Positions 2,464 to 22,185 of a stretch of 22,185 nt of DNA are shown in pieces. The stretch lies in the NCBI RefSeq assembly GCF_004010195.1, contig NC_057718.1, positions 88,139,424 through 88,161,608 of the forward strand. Reading direction: 5' to 3'. The first letter of the stretch is position 1; every line of letters begins with the position of its first letter. Source of the stretch: Chiloscyllium plagiosum. Its lineage: Eukaryota. The position numbers and the translations under genes were made by a program. A model generated the notes under the pieces. It saw only the letters and a list, made by a program, of their open reading frames with translations. It had not been told where the DNA came from and did not search any database.

Positions 2464-3565
2464 CTCCAGACCAAAGGGGTAGCCATGGGCACACGTATGG
2501 GCCCCAGCTATGCCTGTCTCTTTTGTTGGCTACGTAGAACAGTTGATCTTCCGTAATTACACCAGCACCACACCCCACCTCTTCCTCCGCTACATTGATG
2601 ACTGCATTGGCGCCACCTCGTGCTCCCGCGAGGAGGTTGAGCAATTCATCAACTTCACCAACACATTCCACCCTGACCTTAAATTTAACTGGACCATCTC
2701 TGACACCTCCCTCCCCCTCCTGGACCTCTCCATCTCCATCAGTGACGACAGACTTGACACTGACANNNNNNNNNNNNNNNNNNNNNNNNNNNNNNNNNNN
2801 NNNNNNNNNNNNNNNNNNNNNNNNNNNNNNNNNNNNNNNNNNNNNNNNNNNNNNNNNNNNNNNNNNNNNNNNNNNNNNNNNNNNNNNNNNNNNNNNNNNN
2901 NNNNNNNNNNNNNNNNNNNNNNNNNNNNNNNNNNNNNNNNNNNNNNNNNNNNNNNNNNNNNNNNNNNNNNNNNNNNNNNNNNNNNNNNNNNNNNNNNNNN
3001 NNNNNNNNNNNNNNNNNNNNNNNNNNNNNNNNNNNNNNNNNNNNNNNNNNNNNNNNNNNNNNNNNNNNNNNNNNNNNNNNNNNNNNNNNNNNNNNNNNNN
3101 NNNNNNNNNNNNNNNNNNNNNNNNNNNNNNNNNNNNNNNNNNNNNNNNNNNNNNNNNNNNNNNNNNNNNNNNNNNNNNNNNNNNNNNNNNNNNNNNNNNN
3201 NNNNNNNNNNNNNNNNNNNNNNNNNNNNNNNNNNNNNNNNNNNNNNNNNNAATATCATTTATTGTATCCGTTGCCCCCAATGCGGTCTCCTCTACATCGG
3301 GGAAACTGGGCGCCTCCTAGCAGAGCGCTTTAGGGAACATCTCCAAGACACCCGCACCAATCAACCAAACCGCCCCGTGGCCCAACATTCCAACTCCCCC
3401 TTTGCCGAGGACATGGAGGTCCTGGGCCTCCTTCACCGCCGCTCCCTCACCACCAGACGCCTGGAGGAAGAACGCCTCATCTTCCGCCTCGGAACACTTC
3501 AACCCCAGGGCATCAATGTGGACTTCAACAGCTTCCTCGTTTCCCCTTCCCCCACCTCATCCTAG
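2464..3565 (+). pseudogene. PLE reverse transcriptase / GIY-YIG endonuclease ORF remnant
   Basis: RT at 2464-2765 with a frameshift near 2521, YIDD intact. Endonuclease at 3251-3565 ends in TAG. Frame across the N gap cannot be determined. Confidence 0.88.
2766..3250. other. Assembly gap (485 N)
   Basis: Run of N. Confidence 1.
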
Positions 3566-3775
3566 TTTCAAACTTCCAGCCCGCGCTGTCCCCATGACCT
3601 GTCCGGACTTGTCCGACCTGCCTAGCTCCTTTTCCACTTATCCACTCCACCCTCTCCTCCCTGACCTATCATCTTCATCTCCTCCCCCACTGACCTATTG
3701 TATTCTATGCTACTTTCTCCCCACCCTCACCCTCCTCTAGCTTATCTCTCCACGCTTCAGGCTCTCTGCCTTTAT

Positions 3776-3807
3776 TCCTGATGAAGGGCTTTTGCCCGAA
3801 ACGTCGA
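3776..3807 (+). ncRNA. Minimal type I hammerhead ribozyme motif of the Penelope-like element
   Basis: CUGAUGA (3778-3784), extra A, stem II GGGC-UUUU-GCCC (3786-3797), GAAA (3798-3801), palindromic ACGU in place of stem III, GUC triplet ending at 3805. Matches the minimal hammerheads known from PLEs. Confidence 0.8.
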
Positions 3808-4097
3808 TTTTGCTGCTTGTCGGATGCTGCCTGAATTGCTGTGCTCTTCCAGCACCACTGATCCAGAATGCAATGATCCTTTGATATGCCAGAAAGTCCT
3901 GTTCATAAATATCTGTTCACCAGGTATTTATCACTTCCTTGCAGGAGGCACAAAGAAACTGGTTCACAAATTTGAAGGCTTGACTTATTGGTTAAAAACA
4001 ATAGCATACAAAACTGATGGGAAAAGATAACTGGCTTTTTATTCAGTCTTCAGGTATTTAATTACTGCAGAAGGAGACACATCACCCCTTTACACAA

Positions 4098-4166
4098 TGT
4101 TATGGACCAGGCCAGACCCCCTCAAAGTATTTCAAGAAAGTAGCCCAGACCCTAACTTTGCTAGTT
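4098..4166 (-). repeat. Terminal 69 bp of an LTR (family B); probable distal end of the B1 3' LTR
   Basis: tgttatggaccaggccagaccccctcaaa... aligns ungapped with 17930-17998 (9 differences in 69 by eye) and more loosely with 13495-13565. Confidence 0.85.
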
Positions 4167-4254
4167 ATAGAGTCAAAGAGTCATAGTGTTGTACAGCATG
4201 GAAGCAGACCCTTTGGTCCAACCCGTCCATGCCGACCAGATATTCCAACCCAAT

Positions 4255-6780
4255 CTAGTCCCACCTGCCAGCACCCGGCCCATATCCCTCCAAACCCTTC
4301 CTATTCATATACCCATCCAAATGCCTTTTAAATGTTGCAATTGTACCAGCCTCCACAACTTCCTCTGGCAGCTCATTCCATACACTTACCACCCTCTGCG
4401 AGGAAAAAGTTGCCCCTTAGGGGTCTCTCGTATCTTTCCCACCCCCACTTGAATCTATGCCCTCTAGTTCTGGACTTCCAACCCCCCCCCCCCCCCAAAA
4501 GACTTTGTCTATTTATCCTATCCATGCCCCTCATGATTTTATAAATCTCTGTAAGGTCACCACTCAGCCTCCAATGCTCCAGGAAAAACAACCGTAGCCT
4601 ATTCAACCTCTCCCTACAGTTCAAATCCTCCTATCCTGGTAAATCTTTTCTGAACCCTTTCAAATTTCATAACTTATTTCCAATAGGAAGGAGACCAGAA
4701 TTACACACAATATTCTGACAGTGGCCTAACCAATGTCCAGTACAGGTGCAACATGACCTCCCAACTCTTGTACTCAATACTCTTAATAAAGGAAAGCATA
4801 CCAAAAGCCACCTTCTCTGCGACTCCACTTTCAAGGAGCTATGAACTTGCTCTCCAAAGTCTCTTTGTCCAGCAACACTCTCAAGGACCTTACCATCAAG
4901 TGTATAAGTCCTGTTAAGATTTGGTTTCCCAAAATGCAGCACCTCGCATTTATCCAAATCAAACTCTATCTGCCACTTCTCAGCCCATTGACTTATCTGA
5001 TCAAGATCCTGTTGTAATCTGAGGTAAAATCCGTTTAGATCATGTCTACTGCTCTGCCCTCATCAATCCTCTTTGTTGCTTCTTCAAAACACTCAGTCAA
5101 GTTTGTGAAACATGATTTCCCACACACTAAGCCATGTTGACTATCCCTAATCAGTCCTTGCCTTTCCAAATACACGTACATCCTGTCCCTCAGGATTCCC
5201 TCCAACAACTTGTCTCCCACTGACATCAAGTTCCCTGGCTTGTCCTTAGCACCCTTCTTAAACAGTGGTACCACGTTAGCCAAACTCCAGTCTTCCGGCA
5301 CCTCACCTGTGGCTATCGATGATACAAATATCTCAGTAAGAGGCCCAGCAATCACTACTCTAGTATCCCACAGAGTTCGAGTGCACATCTGATCAGGTCC
5401 TGGGGATTTATCCACTTTTATGCATTTCAAGACATCCAGTACTTCCTCCTCGGTAATATGGACACTTTTCAAGATGTCAGCATCTATTTCCCTATATTTT
5501 ATATCTTCCATGTCCTTTTCCACAGTAAACACTGATGCAAAATACTCGTTTAGTATCTCCCCATCTCCTGGGACTCCGCACAAAGGTTGCCTTTTTGATC
5601 TTTGAAGGGCCATATTCTCTCCCTAGTTACCCTTTTATCCTTAATGTATTTGTAAAAACCCTTTGGATTCTACTTAGCTTTGGCAAATAGAGCTATCTCA
5701 TGTCCCCTTTTTGCCCTCCTGATTTCTCTCTTAAGTATACTCCTACTGTCTGTATTCTCTTCCAAGGATTCACTCAATCTATCCTGTCTATACCTGATAT
5801 ATGCTTCCTTGTTTTTTCTTAACCCCCCCCCCTTAACCAAACCCTCAATTTCTTTAGTCAACCAGCATTCCGTATACCTACCAGCCTTTCCTTTCACCCT
5901 AATAGGAATATACTTTCTCTGGATTCCCGTTATCTCATTTCTGAAGGCTTCTCATTTTCCAGCCGTCCATTTACCTGCAAACATCTGCCCCCAATCAGCT
6001 TTTGAAAGTTCTTGCCTAATACTGTTAAAATTGGCCTTCCTCCAATTTAGAACTTCAACTTTTCCATCACTATTTTAAATTTAATAGAATTATGGTCGCT
6101 GGCCCCAAAATGCTCCCCCACTGACACCTCAGTCACCTGCCTGCCTTATTTCTTAAGAGTAGGTCAAGTTTTGCACCTTCTGTAGTAGGTACATCCATAT
6201 ACTGAATCAGAAAAATGTCTTGTACACATGTAACAAATTCCTCTCCATCTAAACCCTTAACACTGTGGCAATCCCAATCCCAGTCTTTGTTTGGAAAGTT
6301 AAAATCCCCTACCATAACCACCCTATTCTTCTTCCAGATAACTGAGATCTCTTCACAAATTTGTTTCTCAATTCCCCCCTGACTATTAGGGGGTCTATAA
6401 TACAATCCCAATAAGATGATCATCCCTTTCTTATTTCTCAGTTCCACCCAAATAACTTCCCTTGATGTATTTCCGGGAATATACTCCCTCAGCACAGCTG
6501 TAATGGTATCCCTTGTCAAAAATGCCACTCGCCCTCCTCTCTTGCCTCCCTTTCTACCCTTCCTGTAGCATTTGTATCCAGGAACATTAAGCTGCCTGTC
6601 CTGCCCATCCCTGAGCCATGTTTCTGTAATTGCTATAATATCCCAGTCCCATGTTCCTAACCAAGAATCAAATTCATCTGCCTTCCCTGTTTGGCCCCTT
6701 GCATTGGAAATAAATGCAGTTTAATTTATCAGTCCTACCTTGTTCTCTGCTTTTTCACTACCTGCCCTAACTGTTTGACT
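4255..6780 (-). pseudogene. CR1 ORF2 (APE endonuclease-reverse transcriptase), disrupted
   Basis: GLYYRPPN, VMVGDFNFP, LDLLL, KSPGPD, VPEDW..ANVVPLFKKG, SQHG...KSCFTNL, KCEVLHFG. The RT core between AVDMI and YLRLQ is deleted near 5030. Confidence 0.93.
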
Positions 6781-6858
6781 CACTCCTGTTCTCAACTGTA
6801 CCAGTCTCAGATTGATCCCTTTCCTCACTATCTCCCTGGGTCCCATACCCCCCCAACC

Positions 6859-7786
6859 TTACTGGTTTAAATTTTCCTGAGCAGCTCTAGCAAATCTCCC
6901 TTCCAGTATATTAGTCCACTTCCAATTCAGGTGCAATCCATCCTTCTTGCACTGATCACTTCTACCCCAAAAGAGCTTCCAATGATTCAAAATTGTGAAT
7001 CCTTCTCCCATACACCAGCTCCTCAGCCATGCATTCATCTGCTCTATCCTCCTATCCCTGCTTTCACTAGCTCTTAGCACCGGGAGTAATCCAGATATAC
7101 TACTCTCAAGGACCTCCTTTTTAAATTCCTGCCTAACTCTATATTCTCCCTTCAGAATCTCAACCTTTTCCCTTCCTATGTCATTGGTTCCAATGTATAC
7201 AATGACCACCTGCTGGCCCTTCTCCCCCTTGAAAACATTCTGCACCATCTCTGAGACATCCTTGATCTTGGCACCAGGAAAGCAATGCACTATTCTGACT
7301 TTCGCTGCTGGCCACAGAAAGATCTGTCTGTACCTTTGACTAGAGAGTTCCTTAACACGATTGATCTCTTGGAACCTGATGTACCCCTTGCATTAGAGCC
7401 AGTCTCAATAACAGAAACTTGGCTGTTTGTGCTATGTTCCCCTGAGAATCCATCACCCCCTACATTTTCCAAAACAGCCTACTTGTTTGAAATGGGTCCA
7501 CAAAAGACTCCTGCACTAGCTGCCTATCTCTCTCACCTTTCCTAGAGTTAACCCATCCACGTGACTGTATCTGCAACCTTTCCCCCCTCCTATAACTGCT
7601 ATCCATCACATCCCCTTGCTCTTTTAAATTCCTCATTGCCTCTAACAGTCTCTCCAACCGATCCATTCGATTTGATGAGATTCACAACCAACGGCATGTA
7701 TTGCAGAAATAATCCTCAGTGACCGGTAAACTCTCCCTAAACCCCCACATCTGACAAGAAGAGCATATCTCTCTACTAAAGGCCAT
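6859..7786 (-). pseudogene. CR1 ORF1 (CxxC-CxxC zinc finger, coiled coil, SGNH esterase), disrupted
   Basis: MAFSREICSSCQMW...FCNTC at the start; IVLRNSLV (mutated GDS block), CFPGA, IGTND, DGLHLN. Confidence 0.9.
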
Positions 7787-8179: not shown

Positions 8180-11168
8180 TTCAGTTTGTTGTTGGGAATG
8201 ACTTGGCAGGATCCAGAGTGGGAGTGACAACCCTTGTTGTGGAGAAGCCCAATGAAGACTAAGAAACTGAGGAATTAAAACAGAAATATCCTGGTATTTT
8301 CCCAGACTCTGTGATAACCAGATCCCATTATCATAAGTCACAGCTCAAAGCAAAAAGTACGGAGAAAGATGAAGGAGTTGAGGTTCAGTTAGTGGACACC
8401 CTGTTTGATGTAATGATGCAAGAAAACCCTGAGCAGGCAGAGGATCAGACAGAAGTTTAAGAGACTTGCAACAGCAAGACAAGATGATAAAAAATATATA
8501 TGTGGATGCATACTCTGAAAAGGAGGCAGAGAATATTCCAGATGGTTATTATCTGAAAGATAGAATCCTCAGACAGAAATGGAGACCACGGCAGGTTAAT
8601 GAGAAGAGAAATGGACTGAGATGCACCAGATTGTGTTGTCAGTAGCATACAGACAGGAGGTGTTACGGGTAGCGCATGAACTACCTGTAGGGGGTCACCT
8701 AGGGGTACGAAAGACTCCGGCTAAGGTACAAAAACAATTTTATTGGCCTGGAATGCACAAAGATGTGGTTAAATTTTGCCGTACATGTCATACATGCCAA
8801 ATGGTAGGTAAGCCACTGGCGGTAATAAAACCAACACCTTTGTTGCCAGTTTCTGCATTTGAAGAATCTTTCACATGGATTATAATTGATTGTATAGGTC
8901 TCCTCCCAAGAACTAAAAGTGGGAACCAGTATTTGATAACCATAATGGATGCGTCTACCAGATTTCCAGAGGCAATTCCATTATGGTGTATCAAGGCAAA
9001 AGAGCTGGTGGAGGAGTTAGTAGCTTTCTTCACACAATATGGGCTTCCCAGAAAGATTTTACTGCTAGGCTGTTTAAGGAGATTATGCATAGCTTGGGTA
9101 TACAGCACTTTAAATTCAGTGCGTATCATCCTGAATCCCAGGAAGGTTTAGAAAGGTCCTTGAAGAGCATCAGACTTGAAGACCATGTTGAGAGCATACT
9201 GTCAGGATTACCCGAATGATTGGTATAAAGGTATCCCATTTGCATTGTTTGCCATTAGAGATGCCCTAAATGAATTTACTCAGTTCACTCTCTTTGAGTT
9301 AATATTCAGTAATGAAGTGAGAGGCCCTTTGAAATTAATGTAAGAAAAATTGACAGGACCAAAGTCGAAGATCTCATATCTAAATTATGTATCAGAGGTG
9401 AGGGAGAGACCAAATCGAGTAAGGGAGTTAGCTAAACAGCACCTAAGCAGGTAGCAGATAAAAGCTCTGAGACTCGGGTGTTTTCCCGAGCAAATGACGT
9501 GTTAGTGATGGGCGATCCATTCAAAGCCAGGTTAAATGGTCCCTATCAAATTGAGAAAAAGTTGAGTCTGGTGAACTATTTAGCAAAGATGCCAGATAGG
9601 AAAAACGGTATTGGGTATGTCATGTGAACATGTTGAAACCGTATTACACTACAAAGAAAGAACTGGAGAAACAGGTGTTAGTTACTGCCCTGCACAGTGA
9701 GGAATCAGATCCAGATAATCTGGATTTTGATGTGCCTCAAAATAGGTTAAAAAATGAAGAAGTCCTTGAGGAGTGGGATAGGTTAGTAAGCGTTCTGCCT
9801 CAGGAGCATAGAATGCAGTTGAAAGGCTTGTTACTGCAGTATAAGGACATATGTAAGAATTAGATGAGGAGGACTAATGCTATTGTACATGAAGTAGACA
9901 TCAAGAATACTGCTCCAATAAAGCAATATCCCTATCGGCCTAATCCTTTCAAAGCCAGATAGGTCCAGAAGGAGGTGGACGCTATGCTTGATGGGAACAT
10001 CATCAAACCAAGTCAGAGCGAGAAAATTCACCGATCGTCTTAGTTCCCAAACCTGACTGGACTCGATGATTCTGCGTGGATTATCAGAAGGTCAACGCCG
10101 TTACAAATTGGACTCCTATCCAATTCCTAGATTGGAGGACTGTATCGAGAAAGTCGGACAGGCCAGTTACATCATCAAGTTGGACTTAACGCGTGGTTAC
10201 TGGCAGGTACCTTTATCAGAGTCGGCAAAAGAAATTTCTGCATTTATAACCCCAAATAGGCTATATCATTTAAAGTGATGCCCTTTGGAATGAAGAACGC
10301 ACCCACCACATTCCAAAGATTCATAAACAGAGCTGTGGCTGGCTTAACAAACTGTGCACTCTATTTGGATGATGTAATGATCTTTAGTAAGTCCTGGAAA
10401 GATCATATGGTGCAGTTGGCAGAGCTCTTTCAACGACTACGAGAAGCAAAATTGGTGATAAACTTAAATAAAATGGAATTCATGAAAGCAGAGGTGACAT
10501 TCTTGGGACATAACATTGGTCATGGAAGGTTGACCCCACAGAACGCAAAGACGAAGGCCATTGAGGAATTTCCACAACCAACCTCAAAGAAAGAGGTGCT
10601 TCGATTCTTAGGACTCAGCAGATTTTAACGGATGTTTGTTCCAAACTTCAGCAGTGTAGTGGCATTGTTAACTGATTTGCTGAAGAAGAACACAAAGTTT
10701 CAGTGGACAGAACCATGCCGGGAGGCATTCGACCATTTGAAATCAATATTAACCACCAAACTAGTTTTAGTTATACCAAACTTTTCAAAACCTTTTGAAA
10801 GTCACCATCGTTGCTAGTGACATTGGAGTTGGAGCTGTACTCCTACACTAAGATGAGGATGGGATTGAACTGCCAGTTGGTTACTTTTCGAAGAAGATCA
10901 ACATCCACCAAAGGAAATGACCCATGATCGAAAAAGAACTATTGAGTTTGGTACTGGCCTTATAACATTTTAATGTGGATGTCACGAACAATGTGTTGGA
11001 GACAGTTGTGTACACTGATCACAATCCACTTACATTCTTAGAACACTTTAAAGACAAGAATATGAGACTATTTCTTTGGAGTCTTATGTTACAGACTTTT
11101 AATTTAAAAATCATACATGTTGCAGGTCAGAAGAATGTAATCACAGATTCATTATCGCGGATTTAACT
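8180..11168 (+). pseudogene. pol of element A (PR C-term - INT - RT - RNase H), frameshifted
   Basis: HHCC: AHELPVGGHLG...CRTCHTCQ. Integrase core IIDCIG, DASTRFPEA, SAYHPESQEGLER (the second catalytic Asp region is deleted near 9055). RT: LDLTRGYWQVP, MPFGMKNAPTTFQR, YLDD. RNase H: TDHNPL, DSLSR. Confidence 0.93.
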
Positions 11169-12064: not shown

Positions 12065-13494
12065 CCCAGCGGCCTCAAACTGACTAGCAGTTCTGAACCC
12101 AAACCGAAGGAAAACTGAGCTGGAAGAACTGGCCACTTCCTTTTCATTGTACAAGTGTTTTTATTGGAACTTGAAAGCCTTTTTTCTGAGGCAGTATCTG
12201 TTAGCGTGTAATAAAATTGGCCCAAAAACCCTTCAAACCTCGAATTTTTGGAATCGCTGTTTTTATGATCTCTGTGGGGGAAAAAAAAGCCAAGGACAGA
12301 ATAACCATGTTAAAGGAGCAGCATCATCACTACCACCCCCTTAAAATAATGAACCATCACTATCCAAAGATGGCTTCATTTTAAAGCCCCTTAATCCTAA
12401 CTTGTTAGTACACTACACCACCAATATACATTACATTGATAATAATCACGAAAATATGCACTACTACATTCTGTTTCAGCCTGTTTTACTCCTATTGCCT
12501 AATGCCTTCATTTCTCAATCAAGTCTTAACAATGCGTTGGCAATCATGTTTTCACATCCTGCCACATGCACAATTTTCAAATTGAATGGTTGCAACTACA
12601 AGCTCCATTGAAACAGTCTAGCATTTTTCTCCTTAGATTTCTCCACAAACCTCAATGGGTTATGTTCAATATATGTAATTGTCTCAGATACACCACTGGT
12701 AACATAAACATTGAAATGTTGTAAAGCCCAACACCAAGCTCAAAATCGCCTTCTCAACTATCAGATATTTCTGCTGTTAAATGTTCAATTTCCTGAAGAA
12801 ATACCCAATAGGTCTTTCTATCTTTTCGTTATCTTCCTGTAAGAGCACAGCACTGACACCCACATCACCTGCATCAATAGCCACCTTAAATGGCTTTGCA
12901 AAATTAGATGTGGCTAATACTGGGGCAGTAGTTAACACAGCTTTCAGGCTGTCAAATTCCTTCTGACAGTCCACTGTCCCACTGAAACTACTTGCCATTC
13001 TTTAGCAATCCAGTGAGTGGAGCAGCTACATTGCTAAAATTTGGTACGAATTTTCAATAAAATCCACTCAATCCCAGGAATTGTGGTACTGCTGTTTTTG
13101 TTGATGGTATGGGAAACTCCCCAATTACCTTTGTTTTTGCATCCTGTGGGGCCATTTGTCCATGTCCAATAACGTGGCCCAGGAAGGTGATTTTGGCTTT
13201 GGCAAATACACTTTTAGCCAGACTTATCACCAAGCCTGCCTTCCGAAGTCGATTGAACAAGTCTGATAAATGTTGCAAATGTTCCTTCCATGTGTGACTA
13301 AAAATCACCAGGTCATCTATATACTGTGTATGGCGTAATTGGGTAATCCAACAATGGCCTTATTGGTTAGTCTCCGAAACGTGGCTGGTGCATTTTTCAT
13401 ACCAAATAGCATGACTTTAAACTGATACAGTCCATTTGGTGTTACAAGAGCCGAAATTGTCTTATCTCTTTTGAAAAAAGGTACCTGACAGTAT
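12065..13494 (-). mobile_element. Gmr1-like element B1: RT C-half, RNase H, PPT and partial 3' LTR
   Basis: Minus-strand YCQVP, VTPNGLYQFKVMLFGMKNAPATF, FLGHVIG, FKVAIDAGDVGVSAVLLQ, HVAG.EN.IA. PPT at 12332-12342; LTR part 12331-12065 aligns with 14152-~13885. No integrase after RNase H. Confidence 0.92.
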
Positions 13495-14152
13495 TGTTCT
13501 GAACTAGGGCCAGACCACCTCAAAACATTTCAGCAAGTTAGCCCAGACCCTAAGTTTGCTCATTTGTTTTTAAGCAGGTGTAACGCAGATATTCCAGGAG
13601 GGATACAGCTGGTCAAACCACTTAGTTTTAAACAAAACAGAATTTAGTTACAAGATTACTGAATGAAACACAAAAGAAAGCGAACAAAATACTGAATAAC
13701 CTAACCTATCCAAAAACCCAACAGATCATCCCAAATTAATGATGCTGCTCCAAATTCTTGCAACAATCCCCATAAACACCCATTGGCACAATAGGTAAAG
13801 CCAAACGCAATGTCTTACAGGAGAGATGTCAGAGAGAGATGGATGGCAGCATGGAACACCTTCTTCCATGTAGTTTTTTTGGATGAGCAACCTCAAAACT
13901 ACCTGATTGCCAAAAACCAAGTCAAACCAGAGAGAAACTGAGCTGGAAGCACTGGCACTCCTCTTTCATTGTGCAAGTGTTTTTTTTAGGCTTAAAAGCC
14001 TTTTGTCTGAGGCAGTTCAGTATCTATTAGCGATAATCAAATTGGTCCTAAAAGCCATCCAATCCAGACTTTTCGGATTCATTGCTTTTATGGCCTCTCT
14101 GGAAAAAAAGCCAAGGACAGCATCGCCTTGTTAAAGGAGCAGCATCATCACA
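13495..14152 (-). repeat. Complete family B LTR (658 bp)
   Basis: Minus strand TGTGATG...AGAACA, directly after the PPT. Its ends match 4098-4166, 17930-18093 and 12065-12331. Confidence 0.88.
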
Positions 14153-14536
14153 CCTCACCCCTTAAAAAAATGAACCATCAATATCCAAAGGTGGCTTCAT
14201 TTTGAAACCCCTTTATCCTAAACTGTTGGTACACTCCAACACACATATACATTACATTGACAATAATCATGCAAACATTTTGTTTCAGTCTGTTGTACTC
14301 CTGCCTTCGAACACCTCTGTTTCTCATTCAAGTCTCCACAACGCATCAGCAATCATGTTGTCTCGTCCTGCCACATGCACAACTTTCAAATTGAATGGCT
14401 GTAACAACAAGCTCCAACTAAACAGTCTGGCATTTTTGTCCTTAGATTTCTCCACAAACTTTAATGGGTTATGATCAGTGTATGTGATTGTCTCAGATAT
14501 ATTACTGGAAACCTAAACATTGAAATGTTGCAATAC
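13495..14536 (-). mobile_element. Gmr1-like element B2: RNase H C-terminus, PPT and complete 3' LTR, abutting the broken B1 RT
   Basis: 14153-14536 is a diverged copy of 12332-~12725. PPT aaggggtgagg (minus) at 14153-14163. Confidence 0.9.
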
Positions 14537-15035
14537 CACAATAGTCAGAGGGAAATTGAGAAACAAACTTGTAAGGAGATCTTGGCGATCTGTAAGAATA
14601 ATAGGGTAGTTATGGTAGGGGATTTTAACTTTCCAAACATCGACTGGACTGCCATTGTGTTAAAGGTTTAGATGGAGAGGAATTTCATAAGTGTGTACCA
14701 GACAATTTTCAGATTCAGTATGTGGATGGACCTACTCTTGGGAAATAAGGCAGGGCAGGTGACTGAGGTGTCAGTGGGGAAGCAGTTTGGGGCCAGCGAC
14801 CATAATTCTATTCGTTTTAAAATAGTGATGGAAAAGGATAGACCAGATCTAAACGTTGAAGTTCTAAATTGGAGAAAGGCCAATTTTGACAGTATTAGGC
14901 AAGAACTTTCGAAAGCTGATTGGAGGCAGATGTTCGCAGGTAAATGGACGGCTGGAAAATGGGAAGCCTTCAGAAATGAGATAACAAGAATCCAGAGAAA
15001 GTATATTCCTCTCAGGGAAGGCTGATAGGTATAGG
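14537..15035 (+). mobile_element. CR1 fragment (endonuclease C-half), same subfamily as 4167-8179
   Basis: NRVVMVGDFNFPNIDW, DLLLGN, SDHNSIRF. Closely matches the reverse complement of ~5870-6390. Confidence 0.92.
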
Positions 15036-15480
15036 GAATAGAACATAGAACATAGAAAAATACAGTGCAGTACAGGCCCTTTGGCCCTCGATGTTGCGCT
15101 GATCCAAGCCCACCTAACCTACACTGGCCCACTATCCTCCATATGCCTATCTAATGCCCGTTTAAATTCCCATAAAGAGGGAGAGTCTACCACTGCTACT
15201 GGCAGGGCATTCCATGAACTCACGACTCACTGAGTAAAGAATCTACCCCTAACATCTGTCCTATACCTACCACCCCTTAATTTAAAGCTATGCCCCCTCG
15301 TAATAGTTGACTCCATACATGGAAAAAGGTTCTCATGGTCAACCCTATCTAAACCCCTAATCATCTTGTACACCTCTATCAAGTCACCCCTAAACCTTCT
15401 TTTCTCCAATGAAAACAGCCCCAAGTGCCTCAGCCTTTCCTCATACGATCTTCCTACCATACCAGGCAACATCCCGGTAA
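15036..15480 (-). mobile_element. CR1 3' fragment of a second subfamily with (TTCTATG)n tail
   Basis: FTGMLPGM...SYEERLRHLGLFSLEKRRFRGDLIEVYK...TRGHSFKL...FFTQ. Tail reads atagaac atagaac atagaa on + at 15038-15057. Confidence 0.92.
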
Positions 15481-16529
15481 ACATGGACTTCAGTAAGGCA
15501 TTTGACAAGGTTCCCAATGGGAGACTGATTAGCAAGGTTAGATCTCATGGAATACAGGGAGAACTAACCATTTGGATACAGAACTGGCTCAAAGGTAGAA
15601 GACAGAGGGTGGTGGTGGAGGGTTGTTTTTCAGACTGGAGGCCTGTGACCAGTGGAGTGCCACAAGGATCGGTGCTGGGCCCTCTACTTTGTGTCATTTA
15701 CGTAAATGATTTGGATGCGAGCATAAGAGGTACAGTTAGTAAGTTTGCAGATGACACCAAAATTGGAGCGAAGAGGGTTACCTCAGATTACAACAGAATC
15801 TGGACCAGATGGGCCAATGGGCTGAGAAGTGGCAGATGGAGTTTAATTCAAATAAATGCCACGTACTGGATTTTGGGAAAGCAAATCTTAGCAGGACTTA
15901 TACACTTAATGGTAGGGTCCTAGGAAGTGTTGCTGAACAGAGAGACCTTGGAGTGCAGGTTCATAGCTCCTTGAAAGTGGAGTTGCAGGTAGCTAGGATA
16001 GTGAAGAAGGCATTTGGTATGCTTTCCTTTATTGGTCAGAGTATTGAGGACAGGAGTTGGGATGTCATGTTGCAACTGTACAGGACATTGGTTAGGCCAC
16101 TGTTGGAATATTGCATGCAATTCAGTTCTCCTTTCTATCGGAAAGATATTGTGAAACTTGAAAGGGTTCAGAAAAGATTTACAAGGATGTTGCCAGGGTT
16201 GGAGGATCTGAGCTACAGGGAGAGGCTGAACAGGCTGGGGCTGTTTTTCCTGGAGCGTCAGAGGCTGAGGGGTGACCTTACAGAGGTTTACAAAATTATG
16301 AGGGTGGTACGTGTATGGAATGAGCTGCCAGAGGAAATGGTGGAGGCTGGTACAATTGCAACATTTAAGAGGCATTTGGATGGGTATATGAATAGGAAGG
16401 GTTTGGAGGGATATGGGCTGGGTGCTGGCAGGTGGGATTAGATTGGGTTGGGATATCTGGTTGGCATGGACAGGTTGGACCGAAGGGTCTGTTTCCATGC
16501 TGTACATTTCTATGACTCTTTGACTCTAT
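15481..16529 (+). mobile_element. CR1 3' portion (RT core to tail), same subfamily as 4167-8179
   Basis: MDFSKAFDKV, SGVPQGSVLGP, KFADDTK, LVRPLLEY, LERVQKRFTRM; tail ctatgactctttgactctat at 16510-16529. Confidence 0.95.
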
Positions 16530-16750
16530 AACTCAGTAAGGTTTGTGAGGCAAGATCTACCCTCCACAAAACCATGTTTACTATCCCTAATTAACTTATT
16601 CCTCTCTAGATGATTATAAATCCTATTTCTTATAACCCTTTTCAACACTCTACCCACATCTGAAGTAAGGCTCACAGATCTATAATTTCCAGGGTTGTCT
16701 CTACTCCCCTTCTTGAACAAAGGAACAACATTTGCTCTCCTCCAGTCTTC
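16530..16750 (-). mobile_element. Internal CR1 RT N-terminal fragment
   Basis: EDWRRANVVPLFKKGSRDNPGNYRSVSLTS...HGFVEGRSCLTNL. Confidence 0.9.
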
Positions 16751-22005: not shown

Positions 22006-22185
22006 AGGTAAAAACAATGACTGCAGATGCTGGAAACCAGATTCTGGATCAGTGGTGCTGGAAGAGTACAGCAATTCAGGCAGCATCCAAGGACAGGCAA
22101 AATCGACGTTTCGGAAGTGCTGTGCTCTTCCAGCACCACTGATCCAGAATCTGGTTTCCAGCATCTGCAGTCATTGTTTTTACCT
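22006..22185. mobile_element. Two head-to-head Penelope-like tails forming a fold-back, inserted in the Tx1 ORF2
   Basis: 22006-22073 is the reverse complement of 22118-22185 (68 bp, 1 mismatch). The minus copy extends to 22114 and includes ccGAAACGTC. Same family as 3796-3869. Confidence 0.92.

Follow-up and report, generated by a model that had tools for sequence, protein, structure and literature searches.

The minimal hammerhead ribozymes (min-HHRs) of metazoan Penelope-like elements have been known as a class since 2014 (Cervera and De la Pena), and so have the extra base and the short stem I that are discussed below. In the accessible parts of their description (PMC4209133), an additional base separating positions 9 and 10.1 is a conserved trait of the class. 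Counted by eye in Fig. S3 of that paper, the extra base occurs in 54 of the 56 motifs and is an A in 30 of the 56; stem I ranges from 2 to 6 bp, with a 2-bp helix I in 6 of the 56. The Drosophila virilis Penelope hammerhead has a 2-bp helix I, and the intron of this element ends at the helix I 5′ edge. The minimal motif of one schistosome stays uncut as a monomer, and its dimers cut weakly. Cartilaginous fish are absent from the 56 rows of Fig. S3 and from Table S1 (PMC4209133, accessible parts throughout).

A second point of comparison is PAc, a Poseidon element of the anole, whose hammerhead is cut only in the presence of the element's protein (Frangieh et al. 2024, PMC11167929; accessible text); it is the one Penelope hammerhead to have been reconstituted, and dependence on protein is demonstrated for PAc alone. 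In PAc core mutants insertion was unaffected, cleavage being dispensable in vitro, and RNA ends at the cut site were not found (PMC11167929). The non-LTR retrozymes also carry type I hammerheads; in salamander they are activated as dimers, a derivation from Penelope pLTRs has been proposed for them, and hammerhead tandem repeats occur in one chondrichthyan genome (for the first two points the accessible parts of PMC7229834 and bioRxiv 10.64898/2026.07.22.740005, for the last the bioRxiv paper). What purpose the Penelope hammerheads serve has yet to be settled, judging from the available text of PMC11167929 and of Craig et al. A literature search, with subscription papers mostly outside its reach, found no account of shark Penelope hammerheads, the accessible part of PMC6155905 included.

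Structure of the motif

The window, by which we mean the whole analysed stretch of 22,185 nucleotides from Chiloscyllium plagiosum, contains a real and complete minimal type I hammerhead at 3776–3807 on the plus strand. Its 5′ half reads U3776, C3777, CUGAUGA (3778–3784), A3785, GGGC (3786–3789) and UUUU (3790–3793); its 3′ half reads GCCC (3794–3797), GAAA (3798–3801), CGUC (3802–3805), G3806 and A3807. The catalytic box CUGAUGA corresponds to C3–A9, as read from the bases and matched by the descriptor given below. A3785 is the unpaired base between A9 and G10.1, in agreement with the published consensus CUGANGAH. Stem II (3786–3797), identified by folding, consists of GGGC/GCCC with a UUUU loop and the closing pair G10.1–C11.1 (G3786–C3797). 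In 3798–3805, the GAAA box adjoins the GUC triplet, and stem III is reduced to, and replaced by, the palindrome ACGU (A3801–U3804). The GUC triplet places the predicted cut site after 3805. From base reading and folding, the 5′ arm of stem I (3774–3777) faces the 3′ arm (3806–3809); U3776 and C3777 pair directly, so that stem I comprises 2 bp (C3777–G3806 and U3776–A3807), and beyond a U·U mismatch A3774 can optionally pair with U3809.

A motif this short invites the question of a chance match. Taken by themselves, the two catalytic boxes are no more frequent than chance predicts, with 2 matches in the window where 4.58 would be expected, the folding energy of the hammerhead region is unexceptional (z −1.53), and Rfam returned no hammerhead match for either the whole window or 3700–3900. 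The full descriptor (core, stem II of at least 4 bp, GAAA, paired 15.2/16.2, UH, stem I of at least 2 bp) nevertheless has a single match in the whole window and none in 1500 dinucleotide shuffles, both strands included; the motif lies where a Penelope-like element is expected to carry one, and a nearly identical motif is published. A chance match is refuted by the shuffles, by the metagenome families described below and by the Nematostella(2) row, and its probability is negligible. The absence of an Rfam match would follow from the motif's lack of helix III and of the longer helix I of canonical hammerheads; the best Rfam scores, all under the gathering score, were those of miRNA models on the palindrome at 22 kb.

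Set beside the accessible description of the min-HHRs (PMC4209133), the motif agrees in being of type I, in having CUGANGA followed by one unpaired base, G10.1–C11.1 and GAAA, in the palindromic 15.2/16.2 without stem III, the short stem I and the U-rich 5′ flank, and in its location within the 3′ pLTR of a 5′-truncated element with reverse transcriptase (RT) and GIY-YIG. In Fig. S3, the row for Nematostella vectensis(2) shows nearly the same motif, differing mainly in the letters of stem II. Unlike the 11 vertebrate rows, in which helix II has 5–7 bp, stem II has 4 bp here, as in the cnidarian rows. Non-LTR retrozymes, in contrast, consist of tandemly repeated units a few hundred bases long, with at least two complete motifs, and those of PMC7229834 (accessible part) have canonical helices and tertiary contacts. 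The present motif is minimal, single and still joined to the ORF of its element; it lacks both the small helix III of canonical type I motifs and their helix I, which has about 6 bp and makes loop–loop contacts, and one complete motif is found in the window outside a 485-base assembly gap.

An earlier note on this DNA had described the motif bases, the 4-bp stem II, the GUC and ACGU elements and the 2-bp stem I, and all of these are confirmed base for base. Its placing of a minimal hammerhead in the 3′ region of a Penelope element also stands, with GIY-YIG and RT upstream on the same strand, and the class is indeed a known one (PMC4209133, accessible parts). Its suggestion that the extra A and the very short stem I might be novelties of this lineage is unsupported, since both are published, with the counts of Fig. 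S3 given above, and recur in other families, where stem I has at most 2 bp in 10 of 21 metagenome families. The search with hammerhead models that it proposed gave, as stated, no Rfam match. What is new is the shark example; judged by sequence, the one small difference from the published vertebrate rows is that stem II has 4 bp. On its own the motif is of little consequence, contributing a case from a shark to a class known since 2014. The family to which it belongs is abundant and uniform, and is a suitable test case for deciding between cutting and a role as a landmark.

The host element

The hammerhead lies about 210 bases downstream of the stop codon of a GIY-YIG endonuclease, on the same strand as the ORF. 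From 5′ to 3′ on the plus strand, the copy comprises the C-terminal part of an RT with its YIDD motif (2461–2765; identified by translation and homologues), which is 5′-truncated and has a frameshift near 2520; the assembly gap of 485 bases (2766–3250); the GIY-YIG end of the Penelope-like ORF (3251–3565, stop at 3563–3565; Pfam PF01541, E 2.2e-5); and the 3′ untranslated repeat or pLTR (3566–3869), made up of a pyrimidine-rich part, the hammerhead and 64 bases past the cut site. C and T account for 76% of 3566–3773. The copy is truncated at about 2461 and has no 5′ repeat. At its 5′ end, a minus-strand piece (2440–2461, reading PSTDTLI) comes from further upstream in the RT, as a comparison with the closest homologue (P0001) indicates; this arrangement resembles a twin-priming inversion. 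No convincing target-site duplication was found for the copy, 6-mers alone being shared. The gap could in principle conceal a second copy, and its size approximately fits the absent part of the ORF.

The closest proteins, at 75% and 78% identity, are from Chiloscyllium punctatum according to the naming of their source. With the best of these as query, the top matches among the best 120 of 778 are mostly from sharks and rays; the lower matches among the same 120, at about 45–53% identity, are mostly unnamed, the few exceptions belonging to corals, molluscs and a brittle star. A CX4CXXC linker is present in the closest homologue, and the corresponding stretch of the window falls in the assembly gap. 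In a set of 131 proteins, a CX2-5CXXC linker between RT and endonuclease occurs in 89 of the 96 homologues with a recognisable GIY-YIG start. The C-terminal GIY-YIG of the window carries CCHH residues at their usual spacing, as recognised by eye. The name of that motif comes from Craig et al., where, in the part available, the CX2-5CXXC linker marks the Neptune and Nematis clades. From these sequence features, the host is an endonuclease-bearing Penelope-like element, probably of the Neptune type.

The element resembles PAc in that its pLTR hammerhead precedes a stretch whose alternative 3′ ends lie about 30–40 bases from each other, and in having integrated copies that continue through the cut site (PMC11167929, accessible text). 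Here, other copies of the repeat extend about 30–35 bases beyond 3869; inverted 5′-truncated copies and an optional 30–40-base tail are known for Penelope-like elements (Craig et al., available part). PAc differs in belonging to the Poseidon clade, whereas the relatives found here have the cysteine linker of the Neptune/Nematis type. The ORF of PAc begins inside the hammerhead (PMC11167929, accessible text). A corresponding ORF start within or behind the present motif was considered and is unsupported, the frames behind it bearing no likeness, by eye, to the N-termini of 14 homologues.

The pyrimidine-rich stretch 3566–3761 contains four AG dinucleotides only and ends in CAG/G, with the CAG at 3758–3760, 14 bases before 3774. 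This CAG is a candidate 3′ splice site, placed like the end of the D. virilis Penelope intron.

Folding and activation

Predicted folding depends on how much flanking sequence is included. Stem II has a pair probability of 0.99 in the context 3770–3815 and of about 0.15 in 3740–3870, and it is found in the minimum free energy structure of 3760–3869. Stem I has a predicted pair probability of at most 0.03, and pairing of ACGU with ACGU between two copies is computed at just −3.1 kcal/mol; taken together, these values mean that the motif folds poorly alone. In wider contexts, an alternative hairpin of 3769–3776 with 3780–3787 is predicted to bury the core. The idea that an inhibitory hairpin is conserved on the upstream side of the core was rejected, as this hairpin has a probability of 0.01 in the narrow context and beats the shuffle mean in just 5 of the 21 metagenome families.

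We regard it as likely that the locus is an ordinary min-HHR of type I, situated within the 3′ pLTR of a single broken Penelope copy that is probably inert. The copy is 5′-truncated and frameshifted, and the window has no second complete hammerhead; it is thus most likely an inert passenger. Since RT enters from the 3′ side (mechanism in the accessible text of PMC11167929), copies with ORF upstream of the motif imply an RNA that was uncut there. To judge from the sequence, the RNA behind the present copy would have been intact at the hammerhead, with RT running from 3869 through 3805/3806 into the ORF. Published work suggests that such a motif would be off by default, owing to the missing stem III and the 2-bp stem I. 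Cutting may take place only when a second ACGU palindrome (a tandem copy), the element's protein, or both stabilise the fold. The most likely role, itself a published hypothesis, would be in active copies, whose tandem or read-through transcripts it would trim at an upstream repeat.

A stricter version makes the dimer obligate: the RNA would need no protein, and a pair of copies, arranged in tandem or acting in trans, would join through ACGU and be cut efficiently into RNA of unit length or into circles. The palindrome is present, and the two-copy duplex has the small gain in energy given above. Dimer activation is demonstrated for canonical type I motifs of axolotl, and weakly for the schistosome minimal motif; in the sequencing runs described below, a few contigs return in short tandem to 3773–3780, for example from 3857 to 3774 in 3 + 1 contigs. 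Against this, dimers of minimal motifs cut poorly, 1 of 9 Xenopus dimer elements cut, and the anole motif needed a protein. When two copies were co-folded without constraints, a different, extended duplex resulted; a descriptor search found no second complete hammerhead in the window outside the 485-base gap, and the RNA run discussed below, a weak test, has no pile of ends. An obligate dimer seems to us rather unlikely, and the more general need for a second copy to activate the motif is an unproven proposal of the earlier note. The protein- or tandem-dependent motif in an inert copy thus stays our preferred reading.

The fold in other element families

Metagenomes were scanned with a core pattern, giving at least 120 loci and 128 matches; 5 matches with short flanks were dropped, and the remaining 123 fall into 21 families. 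The pattern fixed the boxes, the extra A and three stem II pairs and left stem I free, so that the matches hold no frequency information on the fixed parts. The families belong to other hosts, and may be related to each other. A Penelope protein match accompanies 28 of the at least 120 loci, and in 26 of these 28 the motif lies on the same strand and at most 900 bases downstream. In blastn comparisons of the window element with the at least 120 loci, likeness extends over 28–34 bases, hardly beyond the core, and the scan has thus yielded no shark copies. A shark-like pattern had 0 matches in genome contigs and 0 in viral contigs.

The first four positions of stem I form 61 Watson–Crick pairs across the 21 families, against 38.7 ± 3.8 in permutations, and none of 20,000 permutations reached as many. 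Aligning the window motif with a single locus from each family gives a covariation score of 0.617, compared with 0.196 for shuffled controls and at most 0.154 for slid controls. This covariation in stem I shows that the fold is under selection across related element families. The fourth stem II pair, which the pattern left free, forms in 14 of the 21 families with varied pair types, a count that has no control. Seven loci (L008, L023, L045, L047, L053, L099 and L102) carry two motif copies on opposite strands, inverted as in the window.

Depth and ends of the repeat in sequencing runs

Four sequencing runs were aligned to 3300–3920 at 80% likeness; their source organisms are possibly related species rather than this one. 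Contigs matching this region number 73,688 and 85,727 in two contig sets. The repeat is therefore strongly amplified in the source organisms of the runs with matching sequence, which may be relatives; to that extent the amplification that the earlier note proposed for this genome is supported.

Summed contig depth, which is not copy number, is greatest on the core (3783–3803), at 16.2 and 9.1 million in the two sets. It amounts to 5.2 and 4.1 million just downstream of the core and to 0.6–2.2 million in 3615–3761, again not to be read as copy number, and falls several-fold upstream of 3762. If plain 5′ truncation were at work, depth in the tail would equal or exceed that on the core; the core is hence likely to be the part most widely shared among the families. 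Among the 40 best-supported of 254 differences, none falls in 3755–3811 and 7 fall in 3812–3860; for these 40, the core's deficit of differences has p ~0.02 within the high-depth zone and ~0.10 over the whole element. The depth peak and the lack of differences in the core would be in the direction of excess conservation of the ribozyme.

The weakness of this deficit over the whole element, together with the little by which the copy differs from its family in the tail, would suit a neutral hitch-hiker or parasite, intact since the copy is young and every copy includes the end of the repeat. Some Penelope clades without hammerheads proliferate all the same, and parasitism has been raised as a possibility (Craig et al., available part). 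Neutrality sits badly, however, with the covariation of stem I across distant families, and with the depth profile, in which the core is covered some 2–3 times as deeply as the tail next to it, unlike what simple 5′ truncation would give. We consider it improbable.

The ends of the repeat bear on another alternative, in which the fold would serve chiefly as a landmark rather than for cutting, with RNA start, splicing or an RT stop at the upstream edge of the hammerhead. Among the 18 of about 1490 loose-end rows listed, the largest loose ends lie before 3774 (1141 contigs in run X1, 1166 in X5 and 374 reads in the RNA run X21), followed by those before 3775 (404 contigs in X1 and 395 in X5), and none lies before 3806, the cut site. 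The flanks of the loose ends at 3774/3775 are varied, with a median of 255 letters and an agreement of ~0.3. These piles and the fall in depth upstream of 3762 are what such a landmark would give, as are the dispensability of cleavage for insertion in vitro and the lack of RNA ends at the anole cut site (PMC11167929, accessible text). The D. virilis intron, too, ends at the helix I 5′ edge (PMC4209133, accessible parts), and the pyrimidine tract ends here in CAG at 3758–3760. The pile may, however, partly reflect sister families that diverge upstream, since the loose-end consensus beside 3774 has identical last letters in two runs; no RNA joint at the candidate splice site (3758–3760) appears in the read alignment; and a landmark alone would not require that the catalytic bases and the GUC site be kept. 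We think this reading unlikely. It is similarly doubtful that, in sharks, most new insertions have their 5′ end fixed by the upstream edge of the hammerhead and not by the cut site. If they had, a protein-gated fold would have produced a vast population of hammerhead-headed stubs of 85–130 bases from uncleaved RNA, and tens of thousands of junctions would make the purpose of Penelope hammerheads directly testable. Our preference remains for a minimal hammerhead that would cut in active copies and is inert in this one.

At the other end, the repeat stops at 3858/3859 and at 3869, and other copies go on with the sequence of 22151–22180. The RNA run X21, the single RNA run with reads, X22 having 0, contributes 2206 reads on both strands, of which 94% continue into unlike sequence, as is expected of copies within host transcripts. 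The earlier note had proposed a search for RNA ends at 3806; X21 has no pile of molecule ends there or elsewhere, and is a weak test, being a poly-A single-cell library with reads on both strands. In the same run, 116 reads diverge past 3807, and their letters would complete stem I to a perfect 4 bp provided that the 5′ arm is unchanged; they may represent one expressed locus.

Second copy and other features of the window

A partial second copy of the repeat lies at 22006–22185, where its end forms a head-to-head palindrome (no strand assigned) whose right arm reaches the end of the window. The palindrome spans 180 bases, with 72-base arms that are 97% complementary and a folding energy of −138 kcal/mol as RNA. 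Its minus-strand arm starts at the base matching 3796 and continues through the cut site, and so holds the 3′ half of the hammerhead only, without CUGAUGA. Rare letters in common with the copy at 3776 place the palindrome in the same subfamily. A further stretch, at 390–490, is a tail belonging to another, more distantly related family with this type of repeat, and no intact hammerhead precedes it.

Decayed pieces of LINE-type RT and endonuclease, which we take to be CR1-like, are found at 1084–2430, 4170–7400 (minus strand) and 14540–16530; the first of these adjoins the Penelope copy. The copies at 4163–6387 and 14540–16533 form long inverted pairs. Pieces at 8600–10630 and 12100–14530, with integrase and RT motifs, presumably belong to a Gypsy-type LTR element, and contain a direct repeat at a spacing of about 1.8 kb.
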